Origin: Verrucomicrobiota bacterium | GTDB taxonomy: Bacteria; Verrucomicrobiota; Verrucomicrobiia; Opitutales; Seribacteraceae | Assembly: GCA_027622665.1 (NCBI GenBank) | Contig: JAQBYT010000012.1 | Coordinates: forward strand, 36,080-100,079 | DNA: 64,000 nt | Direction: 5' to 3' | Shown: positions 31,983-36,549 of the stretch, piece by piece | How the letters are laid out: each line of letters begins with the position of its first letter | Position numbering within the stretch: the first letter of the stretch is position 1 | Notes under the pieces: generated by a model | Database searches by the model: none | Seen by the model: the letters and a program-made list of their open reading frames with translations, nothing else | Told to the model about the DNA's origin: nothing | Made by a program: the position numbers and the translations under genes

Positions 31983-32162
31983 TCTCGTAACTCATTCCAT
32001 ATCGAGGAACAAGCCCGAAACCCGCAACCTTTTTTCCCCGCAAGCGACTAAAAGTTACTTATTGTTGTTCTTTCTATTAATCGTGAGGGGCTGGAATGCT
32101 CATCGGCAGTTGTTACACGCCGAGCACGCATGATTTCCGTTAATTTACTTCGCGGTACCGCC

Positions 32163-32387
32163 GGATTGCCGCGTCGGGGCTTTGCCCCTCCTCGCAATGA
32201 CAACACAGGAGCTTGGGGCGGGGGCTTCGCTTGCTTGGCTTTGCCCTGTCATTGCGAGGAAGGTATCGAAGAAAACTGACGTGGCAATCCAGTCTGATGC
32301 GTTATGCGGGATGCCGGGGCGATGCGGTGGTTGACTGCGCGACCGCTGGATCGCCGCGTCGGGGCATTGCCCCTCCTCGCGAGGACA
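32163..32387. repeat. Cluster of three alternating REP-like palindromic units
   Basis: Unit 1 at 32163-32202 (ggattgccgcgtcggggctttgcccctcctcgcaatgaca). Inverted unit at 32247-32290 (tgtcattgcgagga...gacgtggcaatcc). Unit 3 at 32348-32387 (ggatcgccgcgtcggggcattgcccctcctcgcgaggaca). Units 1 and 3 contain an internal GGGGC-n-GCCCC hairpin. Confidence 0.85.
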
Positions 32388-32454
32388 AGGTGTATGGCGT
32401 AAAAAGCCGCCGGGGGCTCCGCAAGAGGCGATTCCGGGTTTCGGAGCGTGTTTG

Positions 32455-34527
32455 CTATTGTCCGGCTCGGAGGAGTTTTTCGTACTGTGTGCCGAGGAGG
32501 GCGGTGTTGAAGGCGGCGTAATCGCGTCGAAGGGCCGACTGCAGGGCAGCGTAGTATTGCTCGGAGTGGAAAAAGCAGGCGGCAACTTCGAAGTCGATGA
32601 GCTCAACGTCGTCCTCGCGTACGGTGGGCATCCGGAGGAGTCGTCCTCGGGTGAAGCTCTTTAGTTGGAGTATGTTTTTCTCGGTATTGAGCTCTATGGT
32701 CTTTTTCATGAGGACGGCAAATTTGAGACGCTCGAGATCATCGCGGTTTCGGAGGATTATGACTCTGCGGACCTCTCCCTTCGGTCCCGGTTGGTTGAGT
32801 TCCCAGAGGAGGCGGCGCCAAGTCGCCTTGTCGGGGCAGTCGACGATAGCCATCTCGGGCACGGGTTCCTCCAGCAACTCGCTGGCGGAGGCTCTGTCTC
32901 GGCGGAACTGGTAGCGAAGGGCAAAGGCCTTGCCCGTTTTCTTGTTCGAGAGGACGAAGGGAGCGACCTCTTGGAGGTGCTCGGAGAGAAAGCGCACGCG
33001 AAAGCCCGTGCCGAGATCCTCGTCCTTGCGAAAGAATATCAATTTTCGAGCATCGAGTTTTTCGGCGGCCTCGCGATGCTTGAGAACCTCGTATATTTGG
33101 CGTCGCACGAGAGCATCCTCACCGGGAACGGCGCGATCGGCGAACCGGTTGTAGGGATAGGCCTCGGCAAGGCGAACGTCGTCGGTGACGATGCGATCGG
33201 CGATGGCCTGAAGCTTGAGTAAACCTCGGTTTTCAGTGAGGTAGCGAAGGTCGAAAGTGTCCTCGTCGCGAATGCGGTAGGCATCGCGAAAGAGACGGTG
33301 ATCGAAGCTGTCGAAAAGATCCTCGTCCTTGGGCATGCTCTTGTTGACGAGGTTTTCCTCGGGAAGAACGGAGGGGGTTATGACGATGATTACCTCGCGC
33401 TTGAGACCGGTCTTGGACTTGCTGCGAAAGAGTGCGCCCAAGATTGGTATTTTGCCTAGTATGGGCACACTGTGCACGGTTTCTGCGGAATCCTTGGCGA
33501 TTAGGCCGCCGATAATGAACGGCGTATCGTTGGCGATTCGGGCGTAGGTCTTGACCTCCCGAATCGAAAGCGTGGGAGCGGTGGCGAGGAGATTGCCGTC
33601 TTTATCCTTGACTTCATTGTTCTCGCCGGGGACGCGAGCGGAGACGGAAGCGTTTATCTGGATGGAAACCTCGGATCCGTCCTCGTTGATGCGCGGCCTG
33701 ACGGCCAGCTCGATGCCCGCGGTGACTTCGCGAAAATCAACAGCGCTTATGAAATCCTTGGCGAACTTGGTGGTGGCAATGGGAATTTTCTCAGAGACGT
33801 TTATGTAGGCCATGCGGTTGTCGAGCGTGAGCACGCTGGGTCGAGACAGAACCTCGGCGGAGCCTTCCTTAACTAAGGCCTGCAGGCGGAAGTTGAACTC
33901 ACGAAAGGCGTTCGTAACACTGAAATCGAGCTGCGGAACATTTTTTGCGGACGGCACGAGTTCCCTGATTTTCCCGATTGTCAGGGGAGCCTTGCCGAGA
34001 TGACGGCTTACGAAATTACCATCGCCGGCGTTTCCGGTCAGATCCCACTGCACGCCTAGCTCCTTGAGGGCAGTGGACGAAATTTCCAGGACCATGGCCT
34101 CGATCATAATCTTGCGGGCGGGAATGTCGATCTGCTCGCGAACGACGCGAACGATGCGCCCGAACTGGGACGGTTCGGATGAATCGTAAAAGACCATGAG
34201 CTCGCTCAGAGGGTCCGTCTCGGTTCGCGGAAAAGTGCCGGACGAGGCTGGAACTATCTCGTGGAACTTTGTCTCGGGAAGGGCGACGACGACGGGTAGC
34301 TTCTTCGGGTCTACCGCGGCAGTGACCGATCCGATGGTGATTCCGTAGAGCTTGAGAAGCTGAGTGCATCGAGTGGGGTCGACATAGCTGAGACGAAGTC
34401 GCCGAGAGACCATCTCGATGGGATCGTCATCCGCCGTTTTTTGGGCAAAAGCGGTGCCGCACGTCGACAGAGCCAAAGCAATGACGGTGAAAAAGACCGA
34501 GCGGTGAATTAACGTGTTGCGATTCAT
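32455..34527 (-). CDS. Secretin (type II/III secretion, PilQ/GspD family) with a ~300-aa C-terminal extension
   Basis: IDIPARKIMIEAMVLE...LGVQW, VLSRPSVLTLDN..A.I, GIELAVRPRIN, IIGGLI, VPILGKIPILGALFRS, EVIIVITP; signal peptide. Confidence 0.9.
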   Translation of the reverse strand: MNRNTLIHRSVFFTVIALALSTCGTAFAQKTADDDPIEMVSRRLRLSYVDPTRCTQLLKLYGITIGSVTAAVDPKKLPVVVALPETKFHEIVPASSGTFPRTETDPLSELMVFYDSSEPSQFGRIVRVVREQIDIPARKIMIEAMVLEISSTALKELGVQWDLTGNAGDGNFVSRHLGKAPLTIGKIRELVPSAKNVPQLDFSVTNAFREFNFRLQALVKEGSAEVLSRPSVLTLDNRMAYINVSEKIPIATTKFAKDFISAVDFREVTAGIELAVRPRINEDGSEVSIQINASVSARVPGENNEVKDKDGNLLATAPTLSIREVKTYARIANDTPFIIGGLIAKDSAETVHSVPILGKIPILGALFRSKSKTGLKREVIIVITPSVLPEENLVNKSMPKDEDLFDSFDHRLFRDAYRIRDEDTFDLRYLTENRGLLKLQAIADRIVTDDVRLAEAYPYNRFADRAVPGEDALVRRQIYEVLKHREAAEKLDARKLIFFRKDEDLGTGFRVRFLSEHLQEVAPFVLSNKKTGKAFALRYQFRRDRASASELLEEPVPEMAIVDCPDKATWRRLLWELNQPGPKGEVRRVIILRNRDDLERLKFAVLMKKTIELNTEKNILQLKSFTRGRLLRMPTVREDDVELIDFEVAACFFHSEQYYAALQSALRRDYAAFNTALLGTQYEKLLRAGQ

Positions 34528-36101
34528 CCGGTTTCCTGTGGCGTTTGGTTGTTTGTAGGGGGCGACTCGGGTTCGTTGGTCGGAAAAAGATCGGTAAAGA
34601 AGGTCTGTATGGCCTTGGTGACTCCGGCGGACTTCTTCTTGCGTGGGGCCGCCTGATGAAGCTTTGAGGCGGCCTTTTTGCTATTGTGTATGCGTTCCTC
34701 GCTGAGGGCCACATTGCGGTTGAGCATGACGAGAAAATCACCTTTTCGGCGGGCTATTTCCATGACGGGTTCCTTGGCAATCTCGAAGACTACGCAATCG
34801 GTTATCGCAGCGAGGGTGGACGAGCGACTCTTACCCGTGAGGAGCGAATCTTCCCCGAAATGACGACCCGACTCTATCTGCTCCACCTTGGCCTTGCCCT
34901 CCAACCCCGACAGGGTGACGAAAGAGGAAAGCAAACCCTCGGCAAGCAAGTACAAGGAGTTTCCTTCAGCGCCTTGGCGATAAAGCACTTCTCCGGCTTC
35001 CAGATCGTGGCGTGTCATCGAGCCAACGAGTATGCTTCGTTCGACTTCGTCCAGGTTGCGAAAAAGCTCCGATCGGTCTAAAATCAGACGACGATCTCCC
35101 CCGTCCTCCAAGTTCAACTGACGTCGTTCGGAACCTCGCGAAAGGAAAACCTCCTCCTTGGAAGTGGAGGGCGTGACGCCGGCTCGAGAGAGGTGCTCGA
35201 TGATGCTCTTGTTTACGATGTGACGCGACTCGTTGGGCGAAATGTTTACGGGCAGGATGAAAAACCGCACCTCGTAGCGTTGACCGTCGAGGGTGGCCTC
35301 GTCGAGGCGCACCTCGGGTTCGGGATCCTCGAGTATGCGTTCACCATCGGTCAAGGCCCGAACGCCCGACATGAGGATGCGTATGGCTCGGTTGGGCGGG
35401 ATGGAGTAATCGATCACGAAATCCAAATCGATTCGGAAGTGAGGCTTGGGCTGCATGTAATTGGTGAGTATCGTTTCTCCTAGGCGACTATTTGGAATGA
35501 CCACCATGTTGTTGCTCGTGGTACGCAGACGCGTGGTGCGCCAGTTTATCTCGATAACTTGGCCCACGATGTGGGTCTCCACCCTATTTTGGTGGAGCAT
35601 GACCCAGTCTCCAATGCTGAAGGCGCGTTCCACGTGCATGGCCAAGCCTATGAAAACGTCCAGTATGACGTTTCGAAGGGCGAAACCGATGACTACGCTC
35701 AAGATTCCCGAGGTGGCCCAAATGCCGGTTACGGAACGATCGAACACGGTAGCGAGCACACCCACTCCCGTAAAAAAGAAAATGATTATGCCCGTGACGT
35801 CCTTGGGCAACCTCGGCACCCGGCGACCAGTAAGGTTGGGTATCAGACCGTCCCAGAAAAAGGTGGTGATTCCCCGCTGCACCAGAAACGCTCCCGACAC
35901 CCACATGCCGATCTGCACCCCGTAGACAAAAGTGTTGCGGGCAATGATCGAGGCGTTGCCAAGGAATCGACTGACTAGCTCCTCGTGAGAAAGCAGAGCA
36001 GTCAAGAAGGCGATGAACACTAAGAGCGGAAACCACATCCTCCCCAAGGATCTTGATCCGAAGAACAACCGCTTCTTAGGTTCCGAAGTTGCGGCGCTCA
36101 T
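34524..36101 (-). CDS. MscS-family mechanosensitive channel with a C-terminal cyclic-nucleotide-binding domain
   Basis: N-terminal TM helices, VIGFALRN, FSIGDWV, GQVIEINWRTTRL..VIPNS; cNMP domain YRQGAEGNSLYLLAEG...FGEDSLLTGKSRSST. Confidence 0.92.
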   Translation of the reverse strand: MSAATSEPKKRLFFGSRSLGRMWFPLLVFIAFLTALLSHEELVSRFLGNASIIARNTFVYGVQIGMWVSGAFLVQRGITTFFWDGLIPNLTGRRVPRLPKDVTGIIIFFFTGVGVLATVFDRSVTGIWATSGILSVVIGFALRNVILDVFIGLAMHVERAFSIGDWVMLHQNRVETHIVGQVIEINWRTTRLRTTSNNMVVIPNSRLGETILTNYMQPKPHFRIDLDFVIDYSIPPNRAIRILMSGVRALTDGERILEDPEPEVRLDEATLDGQRYEVRFFILPVNISPNESRHIVNKSIIEHLSRAGVTPSTSKEEVFLSRGSERRQLNLEDGGDRRLILDRSELFRNLDEVERSILVGSMTRHDLEAGEVLYRQGAEGNSLYLLAEGLLSSFVTLSGLEGKAKVEQIESGRHFGEDSLLTGKSRSSTLAAITDCVVFEIAKEPVMEIARRKGDFLVMLNRNVALSEERIHNSKKAASKLHQAAPRKKKSAGVTKAIQTFFTDLFPTNEPESPPTNNQTPQETG

Positions 36102-36358
36102 GATGAATCTCCACCTTTCCCATTCTCCTTGGCTCCGAAGGCAGACGGTTCGTAATCCTTCAACCAGCGCGCCATCATGGCGAATTTCGGTATGGGTACC
36201 TCTTCGCCATCGTGTTTGATGACCTCGAGAATTGCCCCGAGGCTTTGGTTTACGAATTGGTTGAAATTGTAAGCCTCCCCCAAGGAGGAGCAGACCTCCC
36301 TGATTTCATCAAAGGTCTCTTCGGGTACTCGTATGGTTACTGTTTTGCCCTTGGCCAC
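36098..36358 (-). CDS. Small protein, putative ribbon-helix-helix DNA-binding protein
   Basis: GTG start; KTVTIRVPEETFDEIRE...NFNQFVNQSL fits the RHH beta-strand/helix/helix pattern; stop overlaps the MscS start (ATGA). Confidence 0.6.
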   Translation of the reverse strand: MAKGKTVTIRVPEETFDEIREVCSSLGEAYNFNQFVNQSLGAILEVIKHDGEEVPIPKFAMMARWLKDYEPSAFGAKENGKGGDSS

Positions 36359-36371
36359 TACTTAAAAACAC

Positions 36372-36549
36372 CAAGTTACCCAAGCTGCAATACACTGCAA
36401 GCTTTTTTATCTGTCCAAACCCTTTTGCAAGCTTATATATTGTTATCAATTGCATTCTATTGCACACAAACGGCAAGACCTATAAAAAAAGTTTCACTTT
36501 TATGGGCTAAAACCGGCTTGCGAAGCTATGTATAATAAGTATTTATACT
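36372..36549. promoter_or_regulatory. AT-rich divergent promoter region with TGCAAGCTT direct repeats
   Basis: TGCAAGCTT at 36396-36404 and 36426-36434, caagtt/caagct at 36372 and 36381, perfect TATAAT at 36531-36536 upstream of the DUF1501 gene. Confidence 0.5.

Follow-up and report, generated by a model that had tools for sequence, protein, structure and literature searches.

In the 64,000-nucleotide stretch of Verrucomicrobiota DNA analysed here (the window, from contig JAQBYT010000012.1), three overlapping minus-strand genes at 32455-36358 encode a small ribbon-helix-helix (RHH)-like protein, an MscS-type channel with a cyclic nucleotide (cNMP)-binding domain, and a secretin. Channel and secretin stay together across related genomes, no secretion genes accompany them, and within the wider subfamily of this secretin the inner-membrane partner has been exchanged repeatedly. 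The locus likely marks an undescribed two-step envelope route for small molecules. From the genomic context we infer, with moderate confidence, that secretin and channel act in series as a stand-alone small-solute route across both membranes.

The three open reading frames (ORFs; 86, 525 and 690 amino acids, Table 1) are joined by ATGA overlaps at 36098-36101 and 34524-34527, and the first opens with a GTG codon. An earlier note on this DNA, which had described such a coupled operon with a channel keeping the FGE...R residues of its cNMP domain and a secretin as third gene, was right on all of these points. The channel matches PF00924 (54.7 bits), PF21082 (24.2 bits) and PF00027 (57.6 bits), all above the cut-offs; its sequence matches in the PDB are YnaI and MscS for the core and the regulatory domains of PKA and PKG for the cNMP part. 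The FGE-x8-R motif spans residues 416-427, and its G-E and R are retained in nearly all aligned secretin-linked homologues. For the secretin, the PF00263 match of 134.5 bits compares with a cut-off of 27.5. Also as noted earlier, the operon holds no type II secretion system (T2SS) or type IV pilus ATPase, platform protein, pilotin or pilin gene; its flanks hold none either. Metatranscriptome contigs span both gene junctions (X1 records 4 and 6, X2 record 13), at low depth and with the neighbouring helicase gene partly covered, so that a DNA origin is possible. Promoter and terminator scans of the locus gave results at chance level.

The conservation of the pair exceeds chance. Among 251 Opitutales genomes, a channel orthologue (at least 50% identity) is present in 12, and in 12 of 12 the secretin follows directly downstream, cut by a contig end in two of them and frameshifted in one; the full C-terminal domain of the secretin is found in 16 of the 251. 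The frameshift, near residue 100-113 of the G023 secretin (L045:10007-12234), may be an assembly error or decay. The order of the two genes persists down to about 47% secretin identity and with altered flanking genes, and four of four more distant cNMP-MscS genes examined do not lie beside a secretin. The pair also occurs in 52 of 80 metagenome contigs, with an ABC partner in 13, a plain MscS in 2, and 13 contigs that end too close upstream to tell. The linkage on which the earlier note had staked its proposal is thus found in other genomes.

The C-terminal domain of the secretin defines a subfamily of 299 representatives at 50% clustering (E <= 0.001). Over 125 genome loci, its partners are an ABC exporter (70), MscS-cNMP (20), plain MscS (16) or an NTT-HEAT transporter (2), with 8 loci lacking a partner by the rule of our script and 9 too short; an inner-membrane transporter is adjacent or fused in 108 of the 116 informative loci, 80 of the 125 being the best of 494 matches to one Planctomycetota query, so that the loci are kin and the proportions biased. 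[quoted passage not shown] The secretin belongs to a patchy subfamily of the Planctomycetes-Verrucomicrobia-Chlamydiae (PVC) group, with 10 carriers among 401 sampled Verrucomicrobiota genomes and 6 among 301 sampled from Planctomycetota when only some candidates per genome were scored; divergent members such as P0190, P0253 and P0258 lie outside PVC. The coupling of MscS-cNMP channel and secretin put forward in the earlier note is therefore conserved, but this channel is only one of four interchangeable partners, and the commonest in the sample is an MsbA-like ABC exporter of the type IV fold.

The linked ABC proteins form one recognisable group, with an S-R-G-E/Q signature in 92 of 97 compared with LSGGQ in five of five unlinked ABCs of the same loci; none of five proteins met an NCBIfam cut-off among its 25 best matches. 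The third position of the ABC signature may tolerate change, and S-R-G-E/Q as a dead ATPase site was rejected, as the serine and the fourth-position glycine are retained. ABC-secretin fusions account for 18 of 42 representatives scanned, which were picked from 150 listed with a bias toward long ones, and, in a separate search, for 29 of 29 proteins longer than 1208 residues with the C-terminal domain. All 28 fusions parsed (9 were skipped and 13 further left out) contain an internal hydrophobic, signal-peptide-like stretch, which suggests that the halves are probably cut apart and that fusion fixes co-expression rather than a continuous chain. One Acidobacteriota protein (P0258) has a cNBD fused to the secretin through such a stretch.

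Because the MscS-linked secretins form three separate clades among the ABC-linked ones, the partner has been swapped repeatedly, with 4 to 5 changes on a tree that is unrooted and does not give the order of events. A single clade is rejected for all 16 MscS-linked rows (approximately unbiased test, p 8e-58) as well as for the 8 cNMP-MscS-linked rows (p 1.1e-4), the groups having been set by partner before tree building. The linked MscS-cNMP channels cluster (support 86) along with a cNMP-less paralogue from the genome of the window (G000), and the plain MscS partners are another subfamily. The arrangement varies too: the channel lies up- or downstream, the ABC exporter up-, downstream or fused. 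No dedicated ABC partner was found in G000 or in five of five MscS-type genomes, which are incomplete (best matches 30-35% versus 39-57% for linked ABCs), and an MscS-cNMP orthologue was found in 0 of 3 ABC-type genomes of family f10.

Parts that deal with cyclic nucleotides turn up repeatedly around these secretins. Besides the window channel and P0258, they comprise a cNBD gene after NTT-HEAT (L268, L269), a cNMP-domain gene downstream of the secretin at L058, and a phosphodiesterase lipoprotein (L048, L053, L029). L268 and L058 are two of the eight loci scored as partnerless by script; by eye, L268 has NTT-HEAT and cNBD genes one gene upstream. This is the arrangement of the NTT-HEAT and cNBD operons described in PMC5381601, here upstream of the secretin in a paralogous branch and not at the window locus; that paper does not contain the word secretin.

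Secretion genes are scarce near the family. The search covered 192 loci (2.5 Mb, 94 of them with at least 3 kb on both sides) and used as queries the GspE/F/G/K/L, PilB/C/M/T, five membrane fusion proteins (MFPs) and six TolC proteins of G000, a set by which divergent components could be missed. GspE/F/K/L and PilC/M/T had no match within 3 kb of the secretin. Matches appeared in 8 loci, seven at least 3.9 kb away, the nearest MFP among them (3.9 kb, L139), and one TolC-like at 540 nt (L159); 14 further loci gave no match to secretion genes.

By the membership tests run, the window protein is a secretin and is neither GspD, PilQ nor part of a tripartite pump. In its model (94 sequences, pLDDT 84.5), a signal peptide is followed by a single N3-like domain and the barrel, with the C-terminal domain set apart. 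The N3 and barrel fold is matched by secretin structures (Foldseek E 1e-13; VIA Z 11.1-12.7) within residues 35-390 overall, alignments to GspD extending to about 421-424, and N3 starts at residue 39, roughly 10 residues after the predicted cleavage site, which leaves no room for N0, N1 or N2. With GspD, PulD, XcpQ and ExeD (TIGR02517; PDB 5wq7, 6hcg, 5wln, 6i1x) it shares this fold, the gate hairpins and the amphipathic loop. Unlike them, it stays below the cut-off of TIGR02517, its best NCBIfam match (174.7 bits versus 351.35), lacks N0-N2, carries a domain of about 300 residues in place of the short S domain, and is adjoined by no gsp genes, the family neighbours being solute transporters. 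The PilQ model TIGR02515 likewise falls short (132.5 bits versus 284.35). PilQ with TsaP (PDB 6ve2; bioRxiv 2020.05.29.123786) combines a secretin ring with a peptidoglycan-binding aid, and other members of our subfamily carry AMIN or SPOR; unlike PilQ, the window secretin has no AMIN or N0 domain and no pilMNOP context, and a putative LysM-like module, split by an insertion, lies inside its own C-terminus. The secretins pIV of filamentous phages (PDB 7ofh) and RcpA of Tad systems (8odn) are likewise compact, and here the best structural score was reached (Z 12.7, root-mean-square deviation (rmsd) 5.5, 211 aligned), tied with GspD; no phage or tad genes lie near the window secretin. As in tripartite efflux and type I secretion (ABC, membrane fusion protein and TolC), the ABC form encodes a type IV fold exporter with an outer-membrane channel; unlike these pumps, it has a secretin instead of TolC and no adjacent adaptor gene, and the ABC is replaceable by a passive channel.

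The C-terminal 300 or so residues (391-690) match no Pfam family. Folded alone, the domain reaches a pLDDT of 94.3, yet Foldseek found no fold match in PDB or BFVD and VIA none with Z of at least 5. The best VIA rows are of LysM type (Z 4.5-4.7, rmsd 2.1-2.2) in two segments about 170 residues apart; 5k2l, for instance, aligns over 49 of 49 residues (rmsd 2.1, Z 4.6), a Z range that is common with this tool. Residues about 413-434 and 604-636 may thus converge in a LysM-like arrangement around an insertion of about 170 residues, as these weak structural scores suggest, and the invariant N614 and G628 sit in the second segment. At the sequence level, equally high scores came from 11 of 133 control segment pairs, the hhalign probability stayed below 20%, and PF01476 (LysM) has no match at the secretin gene. 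Single subfamily members carry SPOR or AMIN domains, which points in the same direction, and we take a peptidoglycan anchor as a lead for this domain. GGDEF-like VIA rows (Z 3.3-4.3, rmsd 4.5-5.1) were not accepted as evidence for a cyclase, and ESM Atlas cluster matches of 0.88-0.92 to a STAND NTPase were set aside for low recognition and want of a P-loop motif. Relatives of the domain were not confirmed in IMG/VR viral contigs, BFVD or plasmids. Long family members bear an extra N-terminal domain with weak STN/N0-like matches (score 0.83), again a lead.

No pilotin gene was recognised near the window secretin. At ABC-type loci (L257:4614-4967, L258, L259), a conserved gene for a lipoprotein-like protein of 113-117 residues overlaps the secretin stop codon and may encode a pilotin. 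In a marine lineage without the RHH gene (L262:10044-11459, L172, L177, L180-L183, L185), a Sel1/TPR protein gene directly 3' of the secretin may encode an assembly factor.

In the two-step route that we propose, the secretin would form an outer-membrane ring. Its C-terminal domain would be periplasmic and might tether the ring to peptidoglycan, a part played for PilQ by TsaP or AMIN domains. The solute would cross via the periplasm, since three features speak against a sealed duct: only a channel loop of about 15 residues is exposed, N3 is the sole N domain of the secretin, and no adaptor gene is present. The channel is predicted to be under cAMP control, and G000 encodes three class III cyclase domains; the RHH-like protein would repress the operon. 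For the ABC and MscS forms, release is more likely than uptake, but a channel would follow the gradient. A working analogy is offered by porin-plus-transporter operons, in which an outer-membrane pore is encoded with an inner-membrane carrier. Since NTT, cNBD and phosphodiesterase genes are neighbours of the family, nucleotides or cyclic nucleotides are the best lead for the substrate, osmolytes or K+/glutamate the second. Tentatively, the route may be a signalling device and a use of secretins beyond pili, type II/III secretion and phage extrusion, in which PVC bacteria pair a stand-alone, wall-anchored secretin gate with any available carrier (ABC pump, cNMP-gated MscS, plain MscS with a ligand-gated K+ channel, or nucleotide antiporter) and moves nucleotides or cyclic nucleotides in or out as an outside signal. 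[quoted passage not shown]

Several observations weigh against a transport route, beyond the kinship of the loci counted above. The four partner types share no obvious substrate, and no MscS-secretin fusion was found. Six informative loci remain without partner (L087, L132, L233, L260, L265, L267). Pilin-like genes lie within 3 kb of the secretin in 3 of the 192 loci; at L087, one follows the partnerless secretin by 256 nt on the same strand, and at L088 a prepilin-motif gene lies downstream. The neighbours of a sister subfamily are the gene of a large TPR-CHAT protease and that of a HEAT-repeat lipoprotein, not a transporter, CHAT having been found in 5 of 6 upstream genes scanned out of 13 loci. 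Overexpressed bCNG channels gave E. coli no protection from osmotic downshock according to a 2026 review (PMC13591265), which weakens an osmolyte-release role. The sister subfamily itself (Planctomycetota, L234-L245, for example L235:3398-10791) matched 13 of 301 genomes, its tail corresponding to the first 40-60 residues.

A possible but doubtful alternative is a sensor or safety device, in which the partner senses or relieves secretin-linked envelope stress, or aids assembly, under cAMP control and with no shared cargo. Secretin-induced stress at the inner membrane evokes the Psp response, and unrelated transporter classes fit a common signal more easily than a common cargo. Furthermore, cNMP-binding domains occur in four contexts, a fifth context offers a class I phosphodiesterase lipoprotein, and plain-MscS loci often add a fusion of TAXI-binding protein and RCK channel (14 loci). 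The ABC partner speaks for cargo, as it still has the motifs of a functional pump: Walker A, the DE of Walker B (89 of 97) and, mostly, the H-loop. Cargo movement is also the better explanation for a one-to-one fusion between the pore and an exporter that spends energy.

It is unlikely that a T2SS or type IV pilus with its genes elsewhere uses the window secretin as an alternative outer-membrane pore, with the transporter merely co-regulated. G000 (93.5% complete) does have a full T2SS-like locus and PilB/PilC/PilT/PilMNO homologues, with four PF00263 matches and four T2SSE ATPases; GspD is the best NCBIfam match, pilin-like genes lie near 4 loci of the family, and the STN/N0-like matches of long members would fit. 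However, each machine already owns a secretin: by gene order and motifs, one sits in a full gspG-to-gspF-like cluster (C47) and one after pilM/N/O-like genes (C55), the remaining one being a 260-residue partial match (C24). The window secretin, 21-25% identical to those of C47 and C55, is therefore an extra one and not the displaced GspD or PilQ that the earlier note had allowed for. It also lacks N0, the domain by which PilQ binds PilP (same bioRxiv report), and an ABC-exporter fusion would not be expected from co-regulation alone.

Quite improbable is a docked, envelope-spanning duct, with a heptameric channel under a 14-mer ring and the C-terminal or extra N-terminal domain as adaptor. Translational coupling and the ABC fusions imply fixed ratios, and the same report gives a precedent for a 7:14 match in TsaP-PilQ; with no adjacent adaptor gene, the bridge would have to come from the secretin. 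This sits poorly with the short predicted periplasmic loops of the channel and the single N3 domain, with fusions whose halves are probably cut apart, and with four unrelated partners that would require four docking surfaces. That the genes are neighbours by descent alone, with no functional meaning, as close kinship of many loci and the six partnerless ones might suggest, is very improbable and largely refuted by independent recruitments: two MscS subfamilies were recruited separately, gene order flips, and flanking genes vary while the pair persists.

By domain architecture, the window channel resembles bCNG channels, which share the MscS core and C-terminal cNMP-binding domain. Those described are mostly cyanobacterial and of unknown role (Caldwell 2010 and Malcolm 2012, via PMC13591265); structures that would show what the nucleotide does are lacking, as that review notes, and neither 'secretin' nor 'outer membrane' occurs in it. 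On their role, an open question, the linkage to a secretin offers a handle. Secretins in turn are known as the pores used by type IV filament machines, by type III secretion and by filamentous phages (PMC6668835), and the passages available from that paper mention neither 'ABC transporter' nor 'mechanosensitive', though its supplements and those of PMC5381601 could list such genes. No title or abstract start in the literature covered, which largely leaves out subscription papers, reports a secretin together with MscS, NTT or a fused ABC exporter. A secretin subfamily that is tied to transporters and exchanges them across four unrelated classes would amount to a novel way of building envelope transport. 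The family is open to experiment since named cultured Phycisphaerae (Poriferisphaera sp. WC338 and Phycisphaerales AB-hyl4) carry the ABC form; the host group of the window is marine Opitutales by the names of its close homologues, and the RNA and DNA datasets holding relatives are marine.

The RHH-like gene is a local addition outside the operon core. It is found in 34 of 61 channel-upstream loci and missing from 18 with enough upstream sequence, and it was seen only in two Opitutales families and related metagenome contigs. The earlier label 'RHH-like' is fair but unproven: the sole model match is NF041551 (YlcI/YnfO), below its cut-off (24.2 bits versus 30), the Arc profile matches 1 of 13 members weakly (E 0.21), and no RHH match was found in the PDB. 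KTVTIRV is nearly invariant among the homologues. The palindrome TTGCA-N-TGCAA occurs exactly in 20 of 25 distinct upstream regions of RHH-bearing homologues (0.1 expected), the same regions from which the motif was derived. It is retained where the divergent neighbour gene differs, and, allowing one mismatch, none of 19 RHH-less loci has it and a single one among 46 loci of other types does. This confinement to loci with the RHH gene lends support to autoregulation, and the protein likely represses its own operon through the candidate operator. Two exact sites elsewhere in G000 lie inside ORFs and indicate no regulon. The autoregulation proposed in the earlier note gains support in this sense, but the regulator is not part of the core.

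Table 1. Features of the operon in the window (positions refer to the whole stretch)
Feature	Position	Strand	Evidence
RHH-like small protein, 86 aa, likely operon repressor, accessory	36098..36358	-	NF041551 E 2.6e-5, below cut-off; 27 invariant columns in 13 homologues
Candidate operator, degenerate palindrome copy TTGCAGTGTAT, 2 mismatches	36390..36400	-	42 nt upstream of RHH start
MscS-type channel with cNMP domain, 525 aa	34524..36101	-	Pfam; PDB sequence matches to YnaI/MscS and PKA/PKG regulatory domains
cNMP-binding domain, residues 366-452, with FGE...R phosphate-binding residues	34746..35006	-	PF00027 57.6 bits; motif alignment
Secretin, 690 aa: signal peptide, one N3-like domain, barrel, ~300-aa C-terminal domain	32455..34527	-	Pfam, model, structural matches
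Predicted signal peptide, residues 1-28, AFA/Q cleavage, no clear lipobox	34444..34527	-	Hydrophobic stretch 11-25; same AFA/Q in L044
Single N3-like periplasmic domain, residues 39-135	34123..34413	-	Model; VIA alignment to EscC periplasmic domain 3gr5, Z 8.3, rmsd 2.0, 65 aligned
Pfam secretin domain, residues 217-388, gate hairpins and PILGKIPILGALF loop	33364..33879	-	PF00263 134.5 bits; VIA Z 11.1-12.7 to pIV, GspD, PilQ, InvG, RcpA
Family-defining C-terminal domain, residues 391-690	32458..33357	-	299 cluster representatives, E <= 0.001; model pLDDT 94.3

Further observations concern relatives of the channel and of its alternatives. The cNMP-less channel paralogue of G000 (C65, L252:7150-8079), 309 residues long and 40% identical, is also present in G023 and G101 and is a possible mixed-ring partner of the channel. 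In G052 and G018, an unlinked protein of 1124 residues (L250:2071-5445) joins a long N-terminal region to an MscS-cNMP module. A second marine Opitutales paralogue (L048:415-6295, L060, L029, L053) combines an NTT/TLC transporter and a secretin with a lipoprotein that bears a class I 3'5'-cyclic nucleotide phosphodiesterase domain. The TAXI/RCK fusion found near the plain-MscS form, usually together with an SdiA-regulated family gene, joins a TAXI-family binding protein and an RCK/TrkA domain, has three predicted membrane segments (L109:12429-14663, L122:4670-6952) and is a candidate ligand-gated K+ channel.

The operon is flanked by addAB-type helicase/nuclease genes and by a divergent DUF1501 operon. 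Directly 3' of the secretin, at 32131-32452, lies an intergenic repeat with 117 BLAST pieces in the genome, many of them at contig ends, which resembles repetitive extragenic palindromic (REP) elements or miniature inverted-repeat transposable elements (MITEs).

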